From positions 1 to 64,000 of IMG/VR virus record IMGVR_UViG_3300036466_000103: a stretch of DNA of 64,000 nt. One strand, 5' to 3'. Each line of letters opens with the position of its first letter. Position 1 is the first letter of the stretch. Positions 1-49,407 of this stretch are shown one piece after another. Source of the DNA: a virus. A program made the position numbers and the translations under genes. The notes beneath the pieces are model-generated. The model was not told the origin of the DNA. It ran no database searches and saw only the letters and a program-made list of their open reading frames with translations.

Positions 1-307
1 CTCTGTCCCCTCGGAGTCAAGGCACTGTAGTGCAGTGGTACTGGAAGAACAACGGTCGTGAGATTGATGGATTTGATCAACGTGTGATTGTCCCTACAGA
101 TGGAGAGATGATTGTACATGATGGTTGGCAGATCATGACCACCATGGCTTCTCAGCAAACAGCTGTGAAGTATGTTCCTCTTAAGAAATGTCTTCACTTC
201 CGACATAATCCCCAGAATGATAGCCCATCAGGGACGAGCCCACTAGTTTCCGCCTGGCAACCCTGGAAATTAAAGGTTGCTTTCCAGGAATCTGAGGCAA
301 TCGGGGT
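1..307 (+). CDS. portal protein (lambda gpB-type position), exon 1; 5' end lies outside the window
   Basis: The frame is open from the window edge. After removing the 308..616 intron it continues in phase into 617..1364. It lies directly upstream of the S49 protease, decoration and gpE-like capsid genes. Confidence 0.75.
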
Positions 308-616
308 TAATTAGTAGCCCCCTTGAGCAGAAATGCTCATTGAATAACTCATTTAATTGTCTGGGAACCCCTAACGTAAAGACGAGGGCAATCAGCAGCG
401 AAGTTAGTCATTCCTAACTAAAACAAGTTGGGTGCATGTGACTAAAACGTTCAACGACTATCCCGTGATGGGAGTAGGGCCAAGTGGCTCGAAATGGTGA
501 GAACCGAAACAGAAGCTGAACTTGCTGACGGTTAAGATATAGTCTGGTCTGCATGGAAACATGCAGCAGCTCTTAATTGAGCGGGTAGTGATTAACGACC
601 ACTATTGAACACAACG
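308..616 (+). ncRNA. group I self-splicing intron (IA2, T4 td-like), ORF-less
   Basis: P1 hairpin GGGGU|UAAUUAGUA/GCCCC (303-321) puts U307 in a wobble pair with G317. td-like core strings: AACGACUAUCCC (453-464), GGGAGUAGGGCCAAGUGGCUCGAAA (470-494), GUUAAGAUAUAGUCUGGUCUGCAUGGAAACAUGCAGC (531-567), GAUUAACGACC (590-600). The 3' end is ...GAACACAACG with terminal G616. The 309-nt length preserves the reading phase. Confidence 0.85.
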
Positions 617-1364
617 AGCACAAGACAATAACGCCTTTAAGATCCTTTACCTCCCACCAGATTACCTTGTAGCAGATGCTGATGAAGACCGTAAAGAGTC
701 TTTTGAAATGTATAAGCGAATGATGGAGAGGGCACACCAAGCTAAGCAGAGTGGGTTTATCCTTCCAATGCTTACTGACACTGAAGGCAAGAAGATGTTT
801 GACTTTGAGATTAAAAATATCTCAGGTTCAAAGTCTTACGATGTTAATGCAATCATTGCCCGTTATTCCCGTGAGATTCAAGTGGCGTTGTTCGCTGATG
901 TTCTCTCACTTGGTAGTGGATCTGGCGGTAGTTACTCTCTTTCGGAATCTAAAATCTCTATTATTGACATGGCTGTTAAGAGTCGTCTCAATGAGATTAA
1001 AGATCAGCTCAACCATAAGCTAGTTAAGACTCTGTTTGAACAGAATGGTTGGACTACTGACATCATGCCATACTTTGACTTTGACTTGCCTAACAGCGAG
1101 ACATTGGACAGCGTTGGTAGCTACTTGCAGAAGACAGCAGCAGTTGGTCTTATGCCTCTTGTCCCCGAGCTTGTTAACTTCGTTCTGGCTCGTGTTGGTG
1201 TTGATTACAGAGTTCCAGATGATATGCCTACAGAAGAGCTTCGCAAGATCATGACCAACTTCACATCGGAAAGCGGTGGCGGATTGGAAACTGGATTACC
1301 TGGAAGTAACGGACAAGGTATTGGTGCTAACGGCGACCCTAACACAGCTAACAAGGGGAGTTGA
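617..1364 (+). CDS. portal protein, exon 2
   Basis: The frame is open from 609. The predicted ligated junction is ...QESEAIGV/AQDNNAFKILYLPPDYL.... The ATG at 708 in the ORF track is internal and has no RBS. Confidence 0.75.
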
Positions 1365-2775: not shown

Positions 2776-3222
2776 ATGGCTTTTCAAGAATTGACCCTGC
2801 TGAAATACGCTTCTGACCTGGTTATTGATCACAAAGATTTCCACTTCAGTAACGACAATGCAAACGTAACCCCTGGTGCTGCCCCATTCAAACTCGGCAC
2901 TGTTGTTGCTCGTCCAAAAGACTCTGCTCCAACTGTAGCATGGGAAGCTATTGATGCAGCGGCTGACGTTGTTGCTACCAATGAGTTCGCTGTATTGTTT
3001 GGTGATCACTACGGTTTCAAATACGACTTCACTCCAAAAGCAATTGCTGCTGGTAAGTGGAACGCCATCGTAATCAAGCGTGGCGCATCCTTCAAAGAAT
3101 TCTACATCAAAGAGAACTACGCAACCTTGCTGGGCGCTGTCCCTTATGCATTGCTTAAGCAACTTCTGGCTAACGCTGGTCTGCTTGTTCTGGATGATGT
3201 TTCTGACTACACCGTAGCCTAA
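2776..3222 (+). CDS. head decoration protein (gpD position)
   Basis: A 148-aa ORF between the protease and the major capsid gene. The call rests on synteny only. Confidence 0.5.
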   Translation: MAFQELTLLKYASDLVIDHKDFHFSNDNANVTPGAAPFKLGTVVARPKDSAPTVAWEAIDAAADVVATNEFAVLFGDHYGFKYDFTPKAIAAGKWNAIVIKRGASFKEFYIKENYATLLGAVPYALLKQLLANAGLLVLDDVSDYTVA

Positions 3223-3277
3223 TTTAAGGGGAGTGTAAAAGCTCCCTGTTCAAACCAAATTACATAAGGAAAGAATA

Positions 3278-4375
3278 ATGTCTCTGATTATTGATAAGAA
3301 TATTGACCGTCTGTCGCAGGGTAAGTTTGTTGAGCTGACTGACATCTTGGTTGAGTTGCCACGTAATATCTCGATCATCGACCAACTGGGTCTGTTTGAA
3401 GAAGTATTTGTTACTCAAAAGAAAATTGAGATTCAACGTACCCAGTACGCTAACCATCTGATCAAAGATAAGAACTGGGAAGCCAAAGCTGACACTCTGG
3501 TAAGCAAGCCAAAGCGTGGCTTCATTCAAGTTAGCATTCCTAACTTTGAAACACAAGATGCTATCAAGCCGCAAGACGTTGATGGTGTTGCAGAAGTTAG
3601 CTCGATCCAAGAAGCAGCCCAGCTTGAAACCGTAATGAACGTTCGTCTTGAGAAGCTTGCTTATCACAACAACGCGTTCGACCTGACTGCTGACGTTGCT
3701 CGTATGCAACTGCTCACCAAAGGTACCGTGTACGCTCCTACAGGCACACTGGCTACATCTTATGGTGACACTGTAGACTTCTATGAGGAGATGGGCGTTA
3801 CTCGTCAGACTCACGATCTGAAGCTGGTTGGCTCTGTTGACCCACGTATCTCTTGCTCGCAATTGGTACGTAAGATGCGTGAAGCTCTGCGTAATAGCTC
3901 CAGCGGTGGTAACTACAGCCAACTAATCCTGCTGTGCGGTACTGACTTCTTCGACGCTGTATACACCAACCCGTTTGTTACCGAGGCTATCAAATACTTC
4001 GCACAAGATCTGAATAAGATCCTGCTGAAGCCAGTTGATCAAGCTGCTGGTTACGATGCCAACTTCCGTACCATTTCCCTGTGGGGTCTGGTGTTCATCG
4101 ATGCTGGTACTGGTGGCTACGAAGATGCAGAAGGTGTGTTCCAGCCTTGGATCGAAGCTAACAAAGCTATCGCTCTGCCAACTGGCGTTCGTGGCATGTT
4201 CAAGACCTACTACGCCCCAGCTAACACCTTCAGTGCTGTTAACAAGCGTGCTACTGGTCGTTACTACTTCGAGCGTCTGAATGATGAAGACGACCTGATC
4301 CAGATGAAAGTTGGTTCTAACTTCCTGAACGCAACTATCTACCCTGGCGCTATCTTCGACATCACCTTCAGCTAA
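3278..4375 (+). CDS. major capsid protein (lambda gpE-like)
   Basis: 365 aa, in the position after the decoration gene, with a C-terminal pattern resembling gpE. A terminator follows. Confidence 0.7.
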   Translation: MSLIIDKNIDRLSQGKFVELTDILVELPRNISIIDQLGLFEEVFVTQKKIEIQRTQYANHLIKDKNWEAKADTLVSKPKRGFIQVSIPNFETQDAIKPQDVDGVAEVSSIQEAAQLETVMNVRLEKLAYHNNAFDLTADVARMQLLTKGTVYAPTGTLATSYGDTVDFYEEMGVTRQTHDLKLVGSVDPRISCSQLVRKMREALRNSSSGGNYSQLILLCGTDFFDAVYTNPFVTEAIKYFAQDLNKILLKPVDQAAGYDANFRTISLWGLVFIDAGTGGYEDAEGVFQPWIEANKAIALPTGVRGMFKTYYAPANTFSAVNKRATGRYYFERLNDEDDLIQMKVGSNFLNATIYPGAIFDITFS

Positions 4376-4393
4376 GATTGGTGGTTAACACGA

Positions 4394-4425
4394 GGGCTGG
4401 CGTCAAGCTGGCCCTTTGTTGTTTT
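4394..4425 (+). terminator. rho-independent terminator/attenuator after the capsid gene
   Basis: Stem GGGCTGGC/GCTGGCCC (two G:U pairs), loop GTCAA, then TTTGTTGTTTT. Confidence 0.6.
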
Positions 4426-4436
4426 AGGAGATTGAA

Positions 4437-4847
4437 ATGACAGATGATGAAAAGATTTCACTCCTTGCCCTAATGTTAGGTGATATTCCGGGTGGTCCTT
4501 ACTACCCAATGTTCACAGAAGATCAATATAAGCAATTTCTTGTATTGGGTAAGGGTGATGTAAACAGAGCAGCGGTATATGCTGCAATGTCCGCTGCATT
4601 CTTTGTTTCAGGAGAAAGTTCGAGAGAACAAATTGGTGAGCTAGCTATTTCAAGCTCAACAAGCTCTAACTACTTGAAGCTTCTTGACTACATGATCAGT
4701 ACCGCTGGTAAAGTTCCACCACCGAATCTTATGCCTTGGTTTGCAGGAGCGGACCAACGTGACAGGAACAAGCTTATTAACTTTGAGCGATGTTCCCCCT
4801 CTCCCTTCTGGTCTTACCTCGGTGGTAAGCAAGATGGTTGCTGCTAA
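4437..4847 (+). CDS. head completion/DNA-packaging accessory protein (FI position), function uncertain
   Basis: ORF with RBS GGAG. The call rests on synteny only. Confidence 0.45.
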   Translation: MTDDEKISLLALMLGDIPGGPYYPMFTEDQYKQFLVLGKGDVNRAAVYAAMSAAFFVSGESSREQIGELAISSSTSSNYLKLLDYMISTAGKVPPPNLMPWFAGADQRDRNKLINFERCSPSPFWSYLGGKQDGCC

Positions 4848-4859
4848 GGAGGCTACACA

Positions 4860-5252
4860 ATGGCTTTCCATGACAGAATGAGGGCAATGGTGATACGTCA
4901 ACTTTCCCCACAACCAAAGGGTAAGGGTGTACTAGTCACAGCTACAAAGAGAGTTGGTGGAGGTTATGACCCTCGTACTGGTGAGACCACTCCGGTTGTT
5001 ATTGAGACATTAGTTGGAAGCGGCTTGAGAGTTAACTACTCAGAGTATTCATACACAAACTCCACTATTACATACGGTGACTTTCAGATCTATTTGTCCC
5101 CTGTGCTAGCTGACGGAAGTGGAGACATGCCTGAGCCAGCAATAAACGACAGTCTTGAGTTCTTGGGTAAGGACGTTACAGTGATTAATGTAAGTCCTTT
5201 TAATGAGAACAGCGTAGGTTGTGGTTGGAAGTTGCAGGTGAGATATGGCTAA
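4860..5252 (+). CDS. head-tail connector (FII position)
   Basis: Synteny. RBS AAGGAGG. Confidence 0.45.
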   Translation: MAFHDRMRAMVIRQLSPQPKGKGVLVTATKRVGGGYDPRTGETTPVVIETLVGSGLRVNYSEYSYTNSTITYGDFQIYLSPVLADGSGDMPEPAINDSLEFLGKDVTVINVSPFNENSVGCGWKLQVRYG

Positions 5253-22762: not shown

Positions 22763-22935
22763 TGTGTATGTTTAACCTCTGATTCAAATGTTCCTTTAGG
22801 GAATACTGCTGTCTTTCCTGGGACAGTCGATTGCTCGCGTGCCGCATTACTATCAATGAAGAACATAGGTGCATTAATCAGGAAAGACAGCATACATCCA
22901 ATCAGAACAACCTTAATCCAGTCTTTAGTGTTCAA
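22759..22935 (-). CDS. small membrane protein (58 aa, TTG start)
   Basis: The TTG start overlaps the TGA stop of 22932..23213. Hydrophobic core VVLIGCMLSFLINAPMFF. Not in the ORF track because it is under 60 aa. Confidence 0.45.
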   Translation of the reverse strand: MNTKDWIKVVLIGCMLSFLINAPMFFIDSNAAREQSTVPGKTAVFPKGTFESEVKHTQ

Positions 22936-23213
22936 TCTATTTCTCCTTGTTTGTCATCAATTGCATCTTGCACGATAAGTGTTGCACGACTATCAAACTC
23001 TTTCTTGAAATGCTCAATAGCGTCTTTACAAGATACCCAAATACCATTGTCTTTAACGTAAACACCAATTACATCAAATGTAGTCTCACGATAACCATAG
23101 AACTCCGTGTCACATTCAGCACGAGGGTCAAAACTTCCTTTGATGTTGTAGTCTACGATATTCTCAACACTAAAGCGAATATCTTCTGAGAATTTAAGGT
23201 TGTATAGATTCAT
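22932..23213 (-). CDS. hypothetical protein
   Basis: ORF track entry, within an operon of coupled genes. Confidence 0.6.
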   Translation of the reverse strand: MNLYNLKFSEDIRFSVENIVDYNIKGSFDPRAECDTEFYGYRETTFDVIGVYVKDNGIWVSCKDAIEHFKKEFDSRATLIVQDAIDDKQGEID

Positions 23214-23413
23214 TTACTTTCCTCTGCAAATTCATCAACAATCACCACGTCAAACTCCATTCCTTGAATCTCGAAATAGTCGTGAGATTGGTAGGTTACT
23301 ACAACATCCGTACCCTCTAGGTTATCAATGATTCTTTGAGTCATCTTCTTTGTCCTCTCGCTAGGGACACCTCCTCGGTGAATAACTAGGAGATTTAGTT
23401 TATCCTTGCTCAT
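23210..23413 (-). CDS. hypothetical protein (67 aa)
   Basis: ATG 23413 overlaps the upstream stop (ATGA). Preceded by a GGAGG-like RBS. Confidence 0.6.
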   Translation of the reverse strand: MSKDKLNLLVIHRGGVPSERTKKMTQRIIDNLEGTDVVVTYQSHDYFEIQGMEFDVVIVDEFAEESK

Positions 23414-27242: not shown

Positions 27243-27618
27243 ATGAAAAAGAATATTATTGCAACCCCTTATCCTGACAGCAGCATTGTCCAATGCAGTC
27301 TTTGCAAGTACATCTGAGGAAGATCGTGCACGTAAGGTATACAGTGAGGCCATCATTGAGCAGTGTGATTCTGATCGTGAAGTGGCTTATATGATCATGA
27401 AGACTCGTCAGATGAACCTATTTACGCCAAGCGAACACATCCAGACCATCAAGGATGTACACTTGTCTTCCGATAGTGAGAAGCGTGCCATTGAGCTTGT
27501 CCGTGAAACGTATAACACAAAGCTTGAGCCTGCACGTTACACAGAGACTATTGCCAAAGGCTTTGGCTACGAGAAACAAGTGAAATGTCTTAACAAATAC
27601 CTTGGTAAAGCTTTGTAA
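27243..27618 (+). CDS. putative secreted protein; the reading frame is broken near the C-run at 27265-27268
   Basis: ATG 27243 has RBS GGAGA and encodes MKKNIIAT. The long ORF lies in the +1 frame, and its beginning, (L)QPLILTAALSNAVFA/STSEE, completes a Sec signal peptide. Confidence 0.5.
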
Positions 27619-30276: not shown

Positions 30277-30482
30277 ATACGCGTAACCTCAAAGAGTGCC
30301 TTGACATGCAAGATTCACGATTAAGTCAGGAGCAACAGGCTGTTGGTGAATACAATGTCTCTATGGGCTTCGAGCCTTTTATTGAGAGTTATTCTGACTA
30401 CACTTATCTTGTACTAGTTAAAGAGGGTACACGCAACGGTGTAAAACGCATAAATAAAACAGGCCATAATGTATATGTATAA
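30273..30482 (+). CDS. hypothetical protein
   Basis: ORF track entry. Start-stop overlap with the neighbour. Confidence 0.6.
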   Translation: MNTRNLKECLDMQDSRLSQEQQAVGEYNVSMGFEPFIESYSDYTYLVLVKEGTRNGVKRINKTGHNVYV

Positions 30483-31374
30483 CAAAGAGCCGGGGTTAAA
30501 AGTGGTCTCCTTGTTTGATGGGATTAGCTGTGGAAGACAGGCATTGCTGGAGAGCGGGATTAGCGTCTCCCAATATTTTGCATCTGAGGTTGATAAAAAT
30601 GCTATTAAAGTGAGTTCCGATAATCACGAAGATATTGTACGTATAGGCGACGTATCAAAAGTTAGGTATGAAAAAGGAACGCTGACTTCCGAGTATGGTT
30701 CGTGGTATGTAGGTAAAATTGATTTGATATTGGCAGGTAGTCCTTGCCAGGGGTTTTCTCTTGCAGGAAAGCAGCTCAACTTCAAAGACCCTAGATCCAA
30801 GTTGTATTTTGAATTTACAAGACTTCTTTCTGAAATACGGGAATTCAATCCGGATGTAAAGTTTCTTCTTGAAAACGTAAGAATGAAAAAGGAATTTATT
30901 GATACAATTACGGATGACTTGGGTTGTGAACCAATGCTACTAAATTCCCGAGCAAAGGTTGCACAGAATAGGGAGAGATACTACTGGACAAATCTGCTAT
31001 GTAACTCTCAGAAAGTGTCTCTGGTGGAAACCTTCAAAAATACACAAGGTCCGGACATTAGGGGTATTATCGACATGTCTACAGAGGATTATTCTGGAGT
31101 TTGGACATGGCCTCGCGGTTACAATAAAGGAGGGACAAAAGTCTCTACAAAAATGCCATGTATAACAGTCTCGTCTTGGCAGTACAATTTCCTTCTGGAG
31201 AATATATACGGTGTCCGTAGGAAATTTAAACCGGAAGAGTGTGAGCGTGCGCAAGGGCTCCCAGATGGGTACACTAGTTCAATTTCAGACAATGCAAGGT
31301 ATAAGGTGCTGGGTAATTGCTGGACAGTTCCTGTAATTAGTGCAATAGTTTCTGGCTATCAAAAAGGAGTATAG
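30469..31374 (+). CDS. DNA (cytosine-5)-methyltransferase, orphan
   Basis: Motif I VVSLFDGISCG, motif IV GSPCQGFS, motif VI ENV, QGLPDGY, and motif X GNCWTVPV. Confidence 0.85.
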   Translation: MYMYNKEPGLKVVSLFDGISCGRQALLESGISVSQYFASEVDKNAIKVSSDNHEDIVRIGDVSKVRYEKGTLTSEYGSWYVGKIDLILAGSPCQGFSLAGKQLNFKDPRSKLYFEFTRLLSEIREFNPDVKFLLENVRMKKEFIDTITDDLGCEPMLLNSRAKVAQNRERYYWTNLLCNSQKVSLVETFKNTQGPDIRGIIDMSTEDYSGVWTWPRGYNKGGTKVSTKMPCITVSSWQYNFLLENIYGVRRKFKPEECERAQGLPDGYTSSISDNARYKVLGNCWTVPVISAIVSGYQKGV

Positions 31375-33957: not shown

Positions 33958-35943
33958 TTGAAGAGTATCTATAACTGGAAGAAGGCAACCGTTGCCGACT
34001 TGGAGTCTGATGGATTTCTGGATGTTGCTACAAAGCTCCACGTCCTAGGCTTCCAGATGAATGAAAAGGACATTCAGACTTTTAATGGAACATCCGAGTC
34101 TGCCAGGATTGTAAAGTTTTTTCAGTGGCACATGGAGAATGAGATACCTATCGTAATGCACAAGGGTATTTCATTCGATATACCATTGATGGAGAAGTTG
34201 TTTAATATTGACCTCTCTAAGCTGATGCTTATCGACACACTGGCCCTTAGTTGGTACTTGAACTTCGACAGGCGAACCCACGGTCTGGGGACTTTTCACG
34301 AGGACTATGGAATTGAAAAGCCCGTAGTAGAGGACTGGTCAGATCAACCGTATGAGGTTTACCAAAATCGAGTTTGTGAAGACGTAAAGATTAACCAAGC
34401 ATTGTGGAAAGACCTCAAGCGACGCTTGATTGAGATGTACACAACTACCAAGCTTGAGATTGATTCTGGGGCTGTCGGCGGAAAGAGGGTCAGTGAAGAC
34501 GAGTCTATTGCAATTGATGAGTTAGTGGGTCTTCCTGTAGAGGAACACATTAATAGGATCTTAACCTTCTTAATGTTTAAGATGGACTGCGCCCGTCTAC
34601 AAGAAAAGACTCGCTGGGAGGTTGATACAGAACTTCTTTTTGACTCAGAGAAGAAACTTGAGGCAATCGTAAACGAAACAACCTTAGCCCTTGAGGCAGT
34701 CATGCCAAGGGTTCCTCAGTATACAAAGAAGGAAGCCCCAAAGAAGCCCTTCAAAAAGGACGGCACCTTATCATCAACAGGAACTAAATGGAAAGAGTTA
34801 CTAGAGGTATATGAAGCTAAAGAGGTTGATGAGTTCGGAACCTTAAAAGTCGAGGACACTGAAACTAAAGGAGTATTCAAAGCCCTTAGTGGCTATGATG
34901 AGCCAAAGGCATCCTCTCCTGCTCAAGTAAAAGCTTTGCTGTACTCGCATGGATGGGTTCCTACAAGCTTTCGTTATGAGAAAGACGAGGTTGCCTTTAA
35001 TGCCTGGATAGCCAGAAAGCCAAAAGAGGGTTCACATAACAGCAAATGGTCTGAGTGGAAGAACAGCAAGCCTGAAGAAAGGGCTATCCCACAAATTAGT
35101 GTTGGGGGCGATGACGGAAAGGAACTCTGTGAATCTGTTCTTGAGTTGGCAGATGAAGTGCCATCCATTCGTAAGTATGCAGAGTACAACGTAGCTAAAC
35201 ATCGGCTAGGGGTTATCAAAGGATTCATTCGGGACATCAAAGATGGAAAGTGGCTCCAAGCGAGGATTGGGGGCCTAACTAATACATTAAGAGTACAACA
35301 TAGGGAAATTGTAAACCTGCCTGGTGTAGACAAGCCTCATGGAGAGTTGATTCGTGGAGGGCTTGTTGCGGGAGAGGGAAAAATTCTCTTGGGTTCCGAC
35401 ATGTCTAGCTTGGAGGATCGGGTTAAACACAGCCTGATGCTGCCTCATGATCCTGAGTATGTTGCAACAATGCAAGAGGAAGACTTCGATCCCCACATTC
35501 TTATGGCTCTTACGGCAAAAATGATTAGCCAGAAGGAGTTTGATGATTTTAAGCGGGGTGAGAAGTCTTCTAACGCAAAGGCAGCCCGGAAAAAGGGTAA
35601 GACAACCAACTATGCATCTGTGTACAATGCAGGCGCTGCAAAAATTGCTCAGGCAGCGGGAGTAAGCCTAAAAGAAGGCAAAACTCTCCACGAGGCTTAC
35701 TGGAAGCTTAATTGGTCTGTAAAAGCTATTGCTGAAGAGCAGGTTGTTATCAAAGACAGCCGAGGTCGTAAGTGGTTGGTTAACCCGATTAATGGGTTTT
35801 GTTATGCCTTGAGGTCTGAGGCAGACAGGTTTTCTACTTTGGCCCAGGGTAGCGGCTCCTACTTCTTTGATATGTGGGTGGATAATATCCTCACAGAGAC
35901 AGAGAAAAGGTATGGCAAGAAAACGCTAACAGGAAGTTTCCAT
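33958..35943 (+). CDS. family A DNA polymerase, exon 1 (3'-5' exonuclease, thumb, and palm through motif B)
   Basis: TTG start after AAGGAG. Contains a TNYASVYNAG-type motif B region. The frame would otherwise stop 9 codons into the intron. Confidence 0.85.
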
Positions 35944-36193
35944 AAACATCATTGTGGCCTTGCATTGTGAAGTGCATTGAATAACTTTGCTTAAACGGGG
36001 AAAGCTAAAGGATGCGCAAGAGTCCCATGCTAACCTACCGTGCTAAATTGTCGAGAGACATAAAAGCCTAGAGACTATCCTTCGGGAGTAAGCAGAGAGT
36101 TCTGCTGAAATAGCAAAGAGCCTCCCTTTGAGGCTGTGATATAGTCCGACACCAGTTGAAAAGCTGGGTGCCTAACGAGCACAAAACAGTAGG
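35944..36193 (+). ncRNA. group I self-splicing intron (IA2, td-like), ORF-less
   Basis: The 5' exon ends in CCAU (35940-43), which can pair with GUGG (35954-57). Core strings: UAAACGGGGAA (35991-36001), CCGUGCUAAAUUGU (36038-51), GACUAUCC..GGGAGUAAGC (36073-), GAUAUAGUCC (36138-47). Terminal G at 36193. Removal restores ...GSFH/DECIL.... Confidence 0.8.
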
Positions 36194-36352
36194 GATGAAT
36201 GCATCTTGTGTGTGAAGGATACACAAAAATTTAAAGATGAGTTTTCTTCTTTAATAAGATCTGCCGTAGAAAAGGTAAATGTAGATTTCAAGCTTCGAAG
36301 AGCATTGGGCTGTGAGACTCAGTCTGGTAAGCGATATTCAGATATTCACTAG
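36194..36352 (+). CDS. family A DNA polymerase, exon 2 (motif C HDE through the C-terminus)
   Basis: Encodes DECILCVKDTQKF...GKRYSDIH*. The HDE motif spans the junction, and the ending G..Y..IH is typical of a Pol A C-terminus. Confidence 0.8.
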   Translation, partial: DECILCVKDTQKFKDEFSSLIRSAVEKVNVDFKLRRALGCETQSGKRYSDIH

Positions 36353-36362
36353 AGGAGGGAAA

Positions 36363-36899
36363 ATGAGGGAAGTTTGGAAACCGATAATTCTTGATGATAT
36401 TCAAGAGCGTTATGCTGTTAGTAATCTAGGTAAAATTATTGATCTTAAGACTGGTAAATGTTTAGTCTGTCACGATAATGGTGCCGGATATATGAATGTG
36501 GGTTTACAGGGACCAAAGTCAAAGGTCAGGATTCGTTACGTACACAGGTTGGTAGCTATTGCATTTCTTGAGAACCCTGATAAACTACCCCAAGTTGGTC
36601 ATCGTGACCATACAAGATCTAATAACGTTGTCTATAATCTATACTGGACAACACAGAAACAGAATACCCGTGACGGGATTGATGCAGGGAGAATTAATGC
36701 CAATCGGCCAAAGACAAACCGAAAAGTAACAGAAGCTATTATTTGTGAGATTGTTCTGCTGCATAGTCAAGGTAGAGGCATCAACGAAATTGCCGGAATG
36801 CTGGGCTTTCCTCGTACCACCATCTCTAGCGTCTTCAATGGCAGGAGCAATAAAGAGCTGTTTGTGTTTGCAAGCAACGAGCTTAAAAATAATCCTTGA
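36363..36899 (+). CDS. HNH homing endonuclease (NUMOD4-like N-terminus, C-terminal HTH)
   Basis: WKPI..YAVSNLGKI, HRLVAIAF, HRDHTRSNNVVYNLYWTTQKQN, and GINEIAGMLGFPRTTISSV. RBS AGGAGGG. Begins 11 nt after polymerase exon 2. Confidence 0.8.
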   Translation: MREVWKPIILDDIQERYAVSNLGKIIDLKTGKCLVCHDNGAGYMNVGLQGPKSKVRIRYVHRLVAIAFLENPDKLPQVGHRDHTRSNNVVYNLYWTTQKQNTRDGIDAGRINANRPKTNRKVTEAIICEIVLLHSQGRGINEIAGMLGFPRTTISSVFNGRSNKELFVFASNELKNNP

Positions 36900-46738: not shown

Positions 46739-47554
46739 ATGAGTGAGAATAAGTTTCAAATTGGAGATCGTATTCGTGTTGTAAATGCCCAGGAAACGTG
46801 GCTAGATCAAGGTTCAAATCTTGACACAATCTTCACCGCTGTAGAAGAAAATGGAAACGCATGCTTTAGTTTCTGCCCAGACACAAACGAAGTTAACCTA
46901 CACACACTAAATGATTGGCCTAATGACTTTGAGCTTGTCGAACGGCCAGTGCTGAGTTTACCAGAACAAGAGTTGACACATGTTACACTTCCATTGCATC
47001 ATCCTGACCCGAAAGAAGTTATTACCCCAATGACACGGGATAAATCAGAGGATGTGTTTATCCCTATTAGCGTAGCGAATGACACAGCAGAATTTCACAC
47101 AGGTGGAACATTGAAAGGCGCCCACACTCTAGTGGGTGAGGCAGGTACTGATTTTGTTATAACCAGAGAGCGAGCGGAACAGCTTGGTATCATTAAGAAG
47201 ACAACACCACTAGGTGTACACCGCCCAGCCTTGGAAGACCGAAAAGTGGGTAAAGTGGGGATGCATATGGTTATTGATGGCTTTCCTCGTGCACTCCGTG
47301 AAGTTGCCCGTGTGATGACCTGGGCAGGTGAGGTTAAAGGGTACAAGTTGAATGATTGGGTAAACCTACCTAATGCTGAAATTGAGTTTCCTGCTGCTGA
47401 GTATCGTCACCAGAATGACAACTCAATTATGAAGTCAGAGGGCACTCCAGCTATTGAACGTACTGACCACGAAAGTAACTTGCTCCACGCTGCACACAAA
47501 GTGTTTAATAGCTTGGCTGAGCTTGAGCTTATTCTTCAGGGTAAGATTAAATAA
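46739..47554 (+). CDS. protein with a C-terminal DUF5664-like domain (the dATP/dGTP diphosphohydrolase N-terminal-type domain)
   Basis: FPRALREVARVMTWAGEVKGYKLNDW...AAEYRH...DHESNLLHAAHKVFNSLAELE matches the pattern of that family as I recall it. The N-terminal half is unassigned. Confidence 0.45.
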   Translation: MSENKFQIGDRIRVVNAQETWLDQGSNLDTIFTAVEENGNACFSFCPDTNEVNLHTLNDWPNDFELVERPVLSLPEQELTHVTLPLHHPDPKEVITPMTRDKSEDVFIPISVANDTAEFHTGGTLKGAHTLVGEAGTDFVITRERAEQLGIIKKTTPLGVHRPALEDRKVGKVGMHMVIDGFPRALREVARVMTWAGEVKGYKLNDWVNLPNAEIEFPAAEYRHQNDNSIMKSEGTPAIERTDHESNLLHAAHKVFNSLAELELILQGKIK

Positions 47555-47584
47555 TACTCTCCTGAGAGATTGAAAGAATTGGTA

Positions 47585-47624
47585 TTGTGTTATCTGGATG
47601 ATTCCTTTATAATGATCATCCAGA
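47585..47624 (+). promoter_or_regulatory. putative promoter with an overlapping 10-bp perfect inverted repeat
   Basis: TTGTGT (47585-90), 17-nt spacer, TATAAT (47608-13). The inverted repeat TCTGGATGAT/ATCATCCAGA lies at 47593-47602 and 47615-47624. Confidence 0.45.
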
Positions 47625-47640
47625 ATTAATTAAGGAGAGA

Positions 47641-48321
47641 ATGTTGTCTGAATTTGATCAAGAGTTTATGAGCTTCAACAAAGTACGCCTGATTGGCATC
47701 ACAACTCCAGTAGTTGATTTTATCCCAGACAGCGAAGGAATTATCAGCTACTGTGCACGAGTTTCAAATCCATCGAACCAAGATAACTTTGAAACAGCAG
47801 ACAAGCTACTGGCGTATTGTGTTCGTCAGAATCCTTGGTCTGTATTTGATATGGTTAACCTTGTCGTAGAGATTGAAACACCACGAGATATTGCACGGCA
47901 GATTCTTCGACATTCAAGTATGAAATTTCAAGAATTTAGTCAAAGATATGCAGAAGCACAGGACTTTGTTGTTCGTGAGACACGAATGCAAGATGACAAG
48001 AATCGTCAGAATAGCTTGGAGTGTTCTGACACTGAGATTGCGGCTGAGTGGGAAGAGCGTCAGAAGTTGTTGATTGCTCGTGTTGAACAAGAGTACAAAT
48101 GGGCTATTCGAAACGGTATTGCTAAAGAGTGTGCACGAGTTGTACTTCCTGAAGGTAATACAATGAGCTACCTCTACGCCAACATGACAGTACGTCAGCT
48201 CATTACATATCTCAAGGTACGAGATGATGAGGGTGTCAGCCAGCGGGAGCACGTTGATGTTGCACGTAAACTCCGGGAGGTTACAGTTTGTAAACTTCCA
48301 AGTATTGGAGGTCTTGTATGA
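47641..48321 (+). CDS. thyX: FAD-dependent thymidylate synthase ThyX
   Basis: ThyX signature LRHSSMKFQEFSQRY. RBS AAGGAGAG. Confidence 0.85.
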   Translation: MLSEFDQEFMSFNKVRLIGITTPVVDFIPDSEGIISYCARVSNPSNQDNFETADKLLAYCVRQNPWSVFDMVNLVVEIETPRDIARQILRHSSMKFQEFSQRYAEAQDFVVRETRMQDDKNRQNSLECSDTEIAAEWEERQKLLIARVEQEYKWAIRNGIAKECARVVLPEGNTMSYLYANMTVRQLITYLKVRDDEGVSQREHVDVARKLREVTVCKLPSIGGLV

Positions 48322-48770
48322 GTGAAATGGCAGTAGAAAAGTTTGATCAACCAATGGAGTTCGATCAATACCTTGGTCAACTTGATATGGAAAAGCATCC
48401 ATTGTGGAAAAAAGCTTGGGTTGATCAAGACAAAGAAGCATTCGAACAGATCCTAGAAGACTTGGGTGCTGATATAAGTTACGGCTATGACTTCCGAGTA
48501 TGCCTGCATCGTAGTCGAATGACTAACCAGGTTGAGTATGGTGTTCGTGTTGGATTCAAAGAACGTACAGACAAGTGGTGGACAGCAAACATGCTAAGCG
48601 TAGAAGACCTAGTACGCACTACTCGTGGTAGTATACGAGCAACGGGAATGAAGGAAGCGTTAAATCAAGAAACACCCCTATCTGCATACGTTGAGGATCA
48701 GATGGCTAAATCCATAATGCATGTGGAGAAAAGTGTAGTGAAAGTTGACAGGGTGTGCTTAGATGTTTAA
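48318..48770 (+). CDS. hypothetical protein
   Basis: ATGA overlap with thyX. Confidence 0.65.
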   Translation: MSEMAVEKFDQPMEFDQYLGQLDMEKHPLWKKAWVDQDKEAFEQILEDLGADISYGYDFRVCLHRSRMTNQVEYGVRVGFKERTDKWWTANMLSVEDLVRTTRGSIRATGMKEALNQETPLSAYVEDQMAKSIMHVEKSVVKVDRVCLDV

Positions 48771-49407
48771 TAGAAACAAAAGCCATAGGAAGCTAGTCTA
48801 TGGTGTTGGTATAAATGATGCTGATTATGCTGTAATTTGGAGACCTGACCCAACAAACCGAAAATTACAACAAACTTGCCCTTACTATGAAAAGTGGCGT
48901 GGTATGTTTCAACGGTGCTATTCAGAAATATTCAAAGGGAGGTACCCTACATATAAAGACTGTGAAGTGTGCCCAGAATGGCACCACTTTATGGAGTTTC
49001 GTGCGTGGATGGTAGAACAAGAATGGGAAGGTAAGTCTTTGGATAAAGACTTGAAGTGCAGAGGGAATAAAATTTACAGCCCTGAAACTTGCTTATTTAT
49101 ACCACAAGAGGTTAATACCTTCTTGAATTTACAAGAAAGGCAAAGAGGTGAACTCCCGATAGGAGTAAGTTTACGGGACGGTAAGTTCAGATCAACTATC
49201 CGTCGAGAAGGTAAACAAAGGGCGTTGGGTTACTTTTCTTCTCCAGAAGAGGCACATCGTGAATGGTTAAAAGCTAAGCTGGAGCAGGCTGCTGAGTTAG
49301 CATCTAAGTATACTGGTGAAGTTTCATACAGGATACTGGAGTGGTATGGGTTGACCTGTTCAGTTGTGGACAGTGACTGTAATAAATCGAATGAGGTGAA
49401 AGTATGA
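48763..49407 (+). CDS. free-standing homing-endonuclease-like protein with an AP2-type C-terminal domain
   Basis: Paralog of 33315..33941. Confidence 0.45.
   Translation: MFNRNKSHRKLVYGVGINDADYAVIWRPDPTNRKLQQTCPYYEKWRGMFQRCYSEIFKGRYPTYKDCEVCPEWHHFMEFRAWMVEQEWEGKSLDKDLKCRGNKIYSPETCLFIPQEVNTFLNLQERQRGELPIGVSLRDGKFRSTIRREGKQRALGYFSSPEEAHREWLKAKLEQAAELASKYTGEVSYRILEWYGLTCSVVDSDCNKSNEVKV

Follow-up and report, generated by a model that had tools for sequence, protein, structure and literature searches.

A td-like group I intron predicted in a phage portal gene, with intron-less and endonuclease-bearing alleles at the same site

The first 64,000 nucleotides (nt) of the IMG/VR virus record IMGVR_UViG_3300036466_000103 (positions 1 to 64,000, here called the window) open with a portal gene whose reading frame is cut short by a TAG stop codon and is later open again in the same codon phase. 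Is the portal made in two pieces, is the gene broken or misassembled, or is the intervening sequence an intron that is removed from the transcript? An earlier note, made from the sequence alone, proposed a group I intron similar to that in the td gene of phage T4. Our analysis indicates that positions 308-616 are a group I intron interrupting the portal gene, and that this is very probably a functional self-splicing intron of the td type whose removal is required for full-length portal protein. The host phage is a Pseudomonas-type siphovirus of about 100 kb.

The portal gene and the anatomy of its predicted intron

Of the approximately 506 codons of the portal gene, the window includes those from about codon 157 onward. 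The portal frame reads ...WKLKVAFQESEAIGVN and ends in ...ESEAIGVN before the TAG at 312-314; this codon phase reopens at 609 and runs to 1364, with exon 2 beginning at 617. Excision of 308-616 (309 nt) yields the junction ...WKLKVAFQESEAIGV/AQDNNAFKILYLPPDYLVADADEDRK..., and the protein encoded by 3-307 plus 617-1364 has 350 residues (...ESEAIGV/AQDNNAFKILYLPPDY...), with the peptide EAIGVAQDNNAFK spanning the predicted splice junction. This is the in-phase resumption at 617, upon removal of 309 nt, that the earlier note had described, and it is confirmed in the sequence. The spliced portal belongs to Pfam Portal_Mu (PF06074; E 2e-14, 54 bits vs a cut-off of 23.9), the sole Pfam family matched at E <= 0.01; the lambda-type portal profile was not matched. 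The lambda gpB-family portal that had been expected is thus replaced by a Mu-type one, and the suggestion was probably prompted by two lambda-like neighbours. These are the genes for an S49 head protease and a gpE-type major capsid protein, which come after the portal with a small open reading frame (ORF) between them.

The restored protein is colinear with portals that are encoded in one piece. When searched against GenBank phages with tblastn, it gave single-piece, full-length matches in Pseudomonas phages vB_PpS_SYP (79-80% identity) and phiPMW (70%), and a three-way alignment of these proteins is invariant from S97 to L112, across the junction. The solved portal structure 11bp_A in the PDB also aligns gap-free over the junction (E 5e-55). 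Of the 224 relatives found among 5.8 billion proteins, the best 120 are all 497-519 amino acids (aa) long and colinear with the spliced portal, three of them being 97-98% identical to it. Colinearity across the V/A junction, proposed as a check, therefore holds in all of these comparisons, and homologues that align as two independent proteins were found in no genomes besides those with an intron at that position. The exon-2 ORF forms a singleton cluster.

In a scan of the whole window with Rfam at gathering thresholds, Intron_gpI (RF00028) at 298-566 was the single match, spanning the model from 1 to 253 of 253; its score was 96.8 bits (E 9.8e-24), with the gathering threshold at 50. This covariance-model hit had been named as a test of the proposed intron. 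The predicted helices are listed in Table 1. P1 consists of the pairs G303-C321, G304-C320, G305-C319 and G306-C318 and the wobble U307·G317, extended by U308-A316 and A309-U315; the 5' splice site would thus follow U307 at the wobble with the guide, with four G-C pairs to the exon side and two pairs intronward. The GGGGU/GCCCC hairpin had been drawn correctly, and all segments quoted earlier at 453-494, 531-567 and 590-616, ending in G616, have the right coordinates and letters. The 3' junction at G616 is independently pinned by intron-less alleles. No homing endonuclease was found in the window's portal intron; the overlapping ORFs are only 46, 46 and 34 aa long with 0 Pfam matches, in agreement with the claim that the intron holds no ORF.

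The likeness to td is real and far exceeds chance. For comparison, we took the T4 td intron from NC_000866: in the 3' half (from J6/7 onward), the window's intron and td agree at 77% of 150 aligned bases, and the 5' 100 nt are 70% identical. Both introns begin with UAAUU and share the same helices, including P7.1, P7.2, P9.1 and P9.2, and they do not differ in the P9.2 loop AUUAACGAC or the J8/7-P7 block. In the Rfam alignment, P7.1 and P7.2 make up a large insert that separates P7 from P3', and together with P9.1 and P9.2 they are hallmarks of subgroup IA2, the subgroup named in the earlier note. The predicted intron can be placed in this subgroup, to which td belongs, on its architecture and its similarity to td rather than by subgroup-specific covariance models. 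Unlike td, which interrupts thymidylate synthase and encodes I-TevI, the window's copy lies in a virion portal gene and is ORF-less.

The secondary structure is supported by covariation. Exact-word matching of the P7.1-P7.2 segment in IMG/VR yielded 16 related introns, and their 3' halves were aligned with those of td and the window (18 sequences, 16 distinct). In this alignment, 95.8% of the cells pair under the helix model, vs 32-42% when partners are slid by 1-3 columns, and compensatory double changes occur in 22 of 36 pairs; the observed values were reached by 0 of 500 shuffles. The covariation is located in P8 (outer), P9, P9.1 and P9.2, and its presence in the last two matters because these helices and the 3' splice site fall outside the Rfam model. 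P7 (GACUA/UAGUC) shows essentially no variation, with 93.8% of its cells paired, and P7.1/P7.2 pair in 96-100% of cells among the 16 relatives, with C480-G487 replaced by U-A in td; since P7 and P7.2 are nearly invariant, they are uninformative for covariation. Read by eye, P3 covaries with td (CUCAUU/GGUGAG vs CUAUC/GAUAG). A scan of GTDB genomes with the P7.1-P7.2 segment gave no match, and an exact-pattern scan for the P1 region (GGGGTTAATTAGTAGCCCCC) gave none in IMG/VR or GTDB genomes.

Alleles of the insertion site and the sibling endonuclease

A search with the reconstructed exon-1 product uncovered four further intron-bearing contigs in Logan assemblies. They encode two exon-1 proteins, P0122 (99% identical, two contigs), which at 259 aa represents the full exon-1 product, and P0123 (78% identical, two contigs). 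A protein search with only the 103 exon-1 residues of the window returned nothing, which we regard as a failure of word-index sensitivity and not as evidence.

In one of these siblings, contig L056 (Logan SRR14560802), the exon junctions are the same as in the window (GGGGT|TAATTAGTAGCCCCC... and ...GAACACAACG|AGCACAAGAC), and the intron matches the window's save for a few substitutions and the P6b region. The substitutions turn C464-G470 into U·G or fall in the P8 loop. Where the window has its 28-nt P6b hairpin, L056 has about 720 nt, between GUUAGUCA and UGACUAA in the P6a loop, and here L056 (at 3180-3851) and a second contig, L057, contain a 223-aa ORF with an HNH_3 domain (31.5 bits, above the Pfam cut-off) between the P6a strands. 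The ORF of T4 td occupies the same place, although I-TevI is a GIY-YIG enzyme and the sibling's ORF encodes an HNH enzyme. Because L056 and L057 have the same intron with an HNH ORF, the window's copy is an endonuclease-less variant of a mobile intron.

The remaining two contigs, L058 (92 kb, encoding P0123) and L059, carry a diverged, ORF-less intron of 403 nt at the identical site. The L058 intron scores 88.7 bits with Rfam and has the same guide sequence as the window's, and its P2 differs by three compensatory pair changes (UAAGUG/CACUUA vs UGAGCA/UGCUCA in the window). Its P6b stem resembles the ORF-flanking sequences of L056. The contrast of L056 with the window and L058 matches a pattern reported from Streptococcus thermophilus phages by Foley and co-workers in 2000 (cited in PMC8541194), in which one site in a late gene reportedly has either an ORF-containing intron or shorter ORF-less derivatives; the host gene there is a lysin, not a portal.

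Other phages lack the intron altogether. Three contigs (L052, L053 and L054) with portals 97-98% identical to the spliced product are without exactly the 309 nt, their DNA being otherwise about 95% identical, and protein-guided searches did not find the intron in 27 related portal loci from IMG/VR (16) and JGI metagenomes (11). The site is therefore polymorphic for presence or absence: occupied in the window and its four siblings, and empty in these three contigs, the 27 loci and the best 120 database portals.

The exon sequence next to the site differs between the two states. Intron-containing alleles read ATCGGGGT|AGCACAA (CTTGGGGT|AGCACAA in L058), whereas the three closest intron-less alleles read AT[A/C]GG[C/A]GT[C/A]GCTCAA and more distant intron-less relatives ATTGGTGT and similar; the intron-less target sequence includes ...GAGGCTATAGGCGTCGCTCAAGACAAT.... 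A synonymous Gly codon, GGG (303-305), completes the four G-C pairs of P1, while the codon at this position is GGT, GGC, GGA or a Ser codon in every intron-less allele examined. Alignment with the closest intron-less genome gives an identity of about 95% over 10 kb. The 75-nt bin just before the insertion site, however, is only 69% identical, and no other bin within the first 6 kb lies below 84%; the bin at spliced positions 301-375, which begins 7 nt ahead of the site and extends into exon 2, is 88% identical. This low-identity patch is consistent with, although not proof of, a co-conversion tract left by homing.

Splicing, homing and the alternatives

By analogy with other group I introns, expression of the portal would proceed as follows. 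The late transcript would be made as exon 1-intron-exon 2, and ribosomes on exon 1 would halt at the TAG, ahead of the ribozyme core, so that the ribozyme would be free to fold. A role for an in-frame stop just inside phage group I introns, and their preference for conserved protein-coding targets, have been reviewed (PMC3984707). P1 would form between the guide GCCCC and the last exon bases, GGGGU. A guanosine from outside, bound in P7, would attack after U307, and the freed 3'-OH of exon 1 would then attack after G616, joining the exons at GT|A (Val) into a translatable portal of about 506 aa. Since the unspliced transcript would give only the 259-aa N-terminal fragment, head assembly would depend on the ribozyme. 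As to its origin, the window's intron probably arrived through repair of an endonuclease-triggered double-strand break, together with some flanking exon sequence.

Could the ribozyme instead have decayed, leaving the portal a pseudogene and the genome defective or helper-dependent? Endonuclease-less introns are often en route to loss, and the window's copy has neither an endonuclease ORF nor a clear P10. We nevertheless consider decay very improbable, because all conserved core elements are intact, the model score is about twice the threshold, and the few substitutions relative to the endonuclease-bearing sibling keep pairing or fall in a loop. Both exons are also open, with 97-98% protein identity to intact portals, and the rest of the 64-kb window is an apparently complete phage gene set. 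Still less credible is a portal made as two polypeptides (the N-terminal 259 aa and a C-terminal 218 aa from ATG708) around an unrelated structured RNA element. Gene callers do predict an ORF at 708-1364, and a weak purine-rich AAAGAG lies 10-15 nt upstream of its ATG, but a start there would discard 30 conserved codons (AQDNNAFKILYLPPDY...) that are invariant in relatives and open in frame from 617; the intervening RNA is unmistakably a group I ribozyme, and its predicted splice sites are exactly those that make the frame continuous again. The best 120 of the 224 homologues are all single proteins of 497-519 aa.

The explanation to which we give the smallest chance of all is an assembly artefact, in which the intron of another gene or phage was wrongly joined into the portal. 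A Logan contig of the same phage (SRR11805501_322, 84 kb) begins at window position 538, within the conserved AAGAUAUAGUC core, which suggests an assembly-graph break at a repeat. However, a chimera would neither restore the frame exactly nor match the exon end to the intron's guide, and the same junctions occur in five independent assemblies, namely the window and the four sibling contigs, which come from four other sequencing runs. The window and the 84-kb contig, independent assemblies themselves, agree over 538-616 and exon 2; that they are separate assemblies follows from a 1-nt difference at about 27,265-27,268, where the window has CCCC and the contig CCC. The break at 538 may reflect another intron variant in the sample, e.g., an HNH-bearing copy. 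As a second identical intron copy that could cause it, we considered and rejected the intron of the DNA polymerase gene described below, which shares only a 9-mer there. The CCCC/CCC difference is either a sequencing (homopolymer) error or a real variant; at about 27,245-27,300 the Logan version encodes a small, signal-peptide-like ORF starting MKKNIIATLILTAALSNA, which is frameshifted in the window version.

Several points count against a spliced, homing-derived td-type intron, and they concern both its activity and its history. We infer splicing activity from family membership. No convincing P10 helix was found when the first bases of exon 2 (AGCAC) were compared with the 5' portion of the guide, and P7, being invariant, yields no covariation support. 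The window begins inside portal exon 1, and the genome region upstream falls outside it. With regard to homing, the 28-nt P6b of the window is unrelated to the flanks of the L056 ORF, while the P6b of L058 is related to them, and the window's copy may represent either loss of the endonuclease or the state before its gain. The upstream patch of low identity also varies among intron-less alleles, and it may therefore be a general mosaic spot rather than a homing scar.

Introns elsewhere in the window and in other virion genes

The window holds a second predicted group I intron, near the 3' end of a family-A DNA polymerase gene (Table 1). It scored 50.5 bits with Rfam, right at the threshold and in a local scan only; the whole-window scan missed it. 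The spliced DNA polymerase has 714 aa (...GSFH|DECILCVKD...RYSDIH) and is colinear with the DNA polymerase of phage phiPsa300. A free-standing HNH gene starts 11 nt past the polymerase stop codon, and its product is 33% identical to the intron-borne HNH protein of L056. The arrangement resembles the layout of collaborative homing, as in cyanophage S-PM2 with its psbA intron and the free-standing F-CphI (PMC6083498). In that system, an intron without an ORF shields the allele in which it resides, and an endonuclease whose gene lies elsewhere can mobilise it. At the portal intron, unlike in S-PM2, no adjacent free-standing endonuclease is visible, the protease gene following directly and the upstream side lying outside the window, and the cognate endonuclease is found inside the sibling intron.

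Table 1. Coordinates of the portal exons, the predicted portal intron and its helices, and the second intron locus of the window
Feature	Position	Strand	Extent or pairing	Basis or remark
Portal exon 1 (partial)	3..307	+		Frame open from window edge; Pfam Portal_Mu; U307 is the last exon base
Group I intron, subgroup IA2-like, ORF-less (predicted)	308..616	+	309 nt	RF00028; td likeness; missing exactly in near-identical alleles
P1 hairpin	303..321	+	303-309 with 315-321	Guide G317-C321; 5' splice site within helix
In-frame TAG	312..314	+	5 nt inside intron	Sequence
P2	324..339	+	324-329 with 334-339; GAAA tetraloop	3 base pairs covary vs L058
P3, 5' strand	348..353	+	Pairs with 496-501	Rfam alignment
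P4, P5 and P5a	358..397	+	P4 358-364 with 392-397; P5 369-372 with 385-388; P5a 375-377 with 382-384	
P6, P6a and P6b	398..450	+	P6 398-400 with 448-450; P6a 404-411 with 438-445; P6b hairpin 413-419 with 426-432	
P7, 5' strand GACUA	456..460	+	Pairs with U540-C544	Pseudoknot with P3; helix of the guanosine-binding site
P7.1 and P7.2	461..490	+	P7.1 461-464 with 470-473; P7.2 477-481 with 486-490	Subgroup IA peripheral hairpins
P3, 3' strand	496..501	+		Rfam alignment
P8	503..532	+	503-506 with 529-532; inner helix 510-515 with 521-527	4/4 outer pairs covary
P7, 3' strand	540..544	+		Within conserved J8/7-P7 block AAGAUAUAGUC
P9	549..566	+	549-555 with 560-566; GAAA loop	Compensatory changes in 5/7 pairs
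P9.1 and P9.2	569..606	+	P9.1 569-572 with 579-582; P9.2 584-590 with 600-606	Outside Rfam model; 4/4 and 7/7 pairs covary
Terminal guanosine (omega-G), predicted 3' splice site	616	+		Within conserved ...UGAACAnAAnG tail (18 relatives)
Portal exon 2	617..1364	+	248 codons + stop	
DNA polymerase exons	33958-35943 and 36194-36352			
Second group I intron, ORF-less (predicted)	35944-36193		250 nt; near 3' end of family-A DNA polymerase gene	U35943 before; ends G36193
Free-standing HNH homing-endonuclease-like gene	36363-36899	+		NUMOD4 + HNH_3 + helix-turn-helix

In the sibling L056, the large terminase gene also has a group I intron near its 3' end (1820-2140, Rfam 54.9 bits), and the terminase ORF stops at 479 aa vs 502 aa in intron-less relatives. 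In the phage of the window, the corresponding terminase region is upstream of position 1, so the lineage may carry at least three introns, in the terminase, portal and DNA polymerase genes. By Pfam labels, the window also encodes a cytosine DNA methylase (30469-31374) and, at 46739-49407, a nucleotide-metabolism cluster comprising a protein with a dGTP diphosphohydrolase-like N-terminal domain and ThyX (Thy1), with a glutaredoxin further on.

The portal intron is not alone in its host gene. Among the 16 related introns from IMG/VR, one sits in the portal gene of the Pseudomonas syringae phage vB_PsyM_KIL1 (Flaumdravirus, NC_030934), and its sequence is also present in KIL2-5, in 8 GenBank and RefSeq records altogether. 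This intron of 396 nt (L040 7616-8011, corresponding to NC_030934 ~22,856-23,251) splits ...EEQEAIGVTR|DMNGMPTLYLPP..., 7 nt downstream of the position homologous to the window's site. Like the window, the KIL phages have a td-like group I intron within the conserved EAIGV... motif of a homologous Portal_Mu portal. The two introns are almost the same in the P9.2 stem and the J6/7-P7-P7.1-P7.2 region, and intron-less relatives exist (16Q, PHB09). The KIL phages differ in the site (GVTR|DMNG), in the guide, which pairs with CGCGU, in their larger P5/P6 arms and in being myoviruses, to which the window's portal is distantly related, with only about 35% identity to other Pseudomonas myovirus portals. 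RefSeq annotates both the portal and the large terminase of NC_030934 as joined coding sequences, with a free-standing gene annotated as an HNH endonuclease between them, and KIL1-5 have introns in the terminase and further genes of the same 90-kb genome. The paper describing the KIL phages does not mention introns.

A third insertion site lies about 26 codons upstream of the window's, in contig L060 (Logan ERR4682409), in which a group I intron at 3627-5078 (Rfam 86.7 bits) interrupts ...NDSPVG|SSPL... and the window's insertion site is intact. Within the L060 intron lies an ORF of 346 aa that begins with a GIY-YIG-like N-terminus (YYYIGS) and has no Pfam match on record, and the proteins P0127 and P0128 end at the same point as the L060 portal site. 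At least three insertion sites (DSPxG|, IGV|A and GVTR|D) are therefore clustered in one hyper-conserved portal segment, and the endonucleases tied to them are of different types: the 346-aa GIY-YIG-like ORF, the intron-internal HNH ORF and the free-standing HNH gene annotated in RefSeq, respectively. A more speculative reading, which we think rather unlikely, is that this stretch of about 35 codons (HFRHNPxNDSPxG...ESEAIGVAQDNN) is a battleground of homing elements with differing endonucleases, and that the window's intron serves mainly as an immunity allele against the endonuclease of co-infecting siblings. If true, it would extend to a virion structural gene the intron-endonuclease interference competition shown for PhiPA3 against PhiKZ (PMC11620839), and it would help explain the local mosaicism of the portal gene.

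The earlier note took known phage introns to sit mostly in nucleotide-metabolism and DNA polymerase genes, and the rarity this implies for virion genes was overstated. Group I introns whose splicing has been demonstrated interrupt capsid and tail genes in Cluster J mycobacteriophages, and others are found in the capsid gene of Lactococcus phage Tuc2009 (PMC3706429), in major capsid protein genes of crAss-like phages (PMC7886860), and in the terminase genes of the KASIA and Jug phages, with splicing shown (PMC8541194; PMC12880540). In the KASIA and Jug phages, portal genes are also reported as fragmented and/or highly divergent (PMC8541194; PMC12880540). RefSeq, moreover, already annotates the spliced portal gene of KIL1. 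As in the window, these introns interrupt an essential late or structural gene and make virion production splicing-dependent, are patchy among close relatives and have an endonuclease in some copies only. They differ in host genes and lineages, and splicing is experimental in Cluster J, KASIA and Jug and predicted for the window. We found no paper that explicitly describes a portal-gene intron in the literature. Overall, the window's intron is a further example among portal introns already in public phage genomes, and involves no new mechanism.

For annotation, the portal requires a joined coding sequence of exon 1, ending at 307, and exon 2 at 617-1364, where gene callers give only a 218-aa C-terminal fragment (ATG708-1364); the same fragment error affects the DNA polymerase gene of this window. 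For phage biology, the locus offers a natural allelic series in an essential head gene: in phages that are about 95% identical, a single site is empty, has an ORF-less intron or has an HNH-bearing one. Such a series is suited to the study of homing, of how endonucleases are gained and lost, of co-conversion in the adjoining exons, and of whether such elements affect competition between co-infecting phages.

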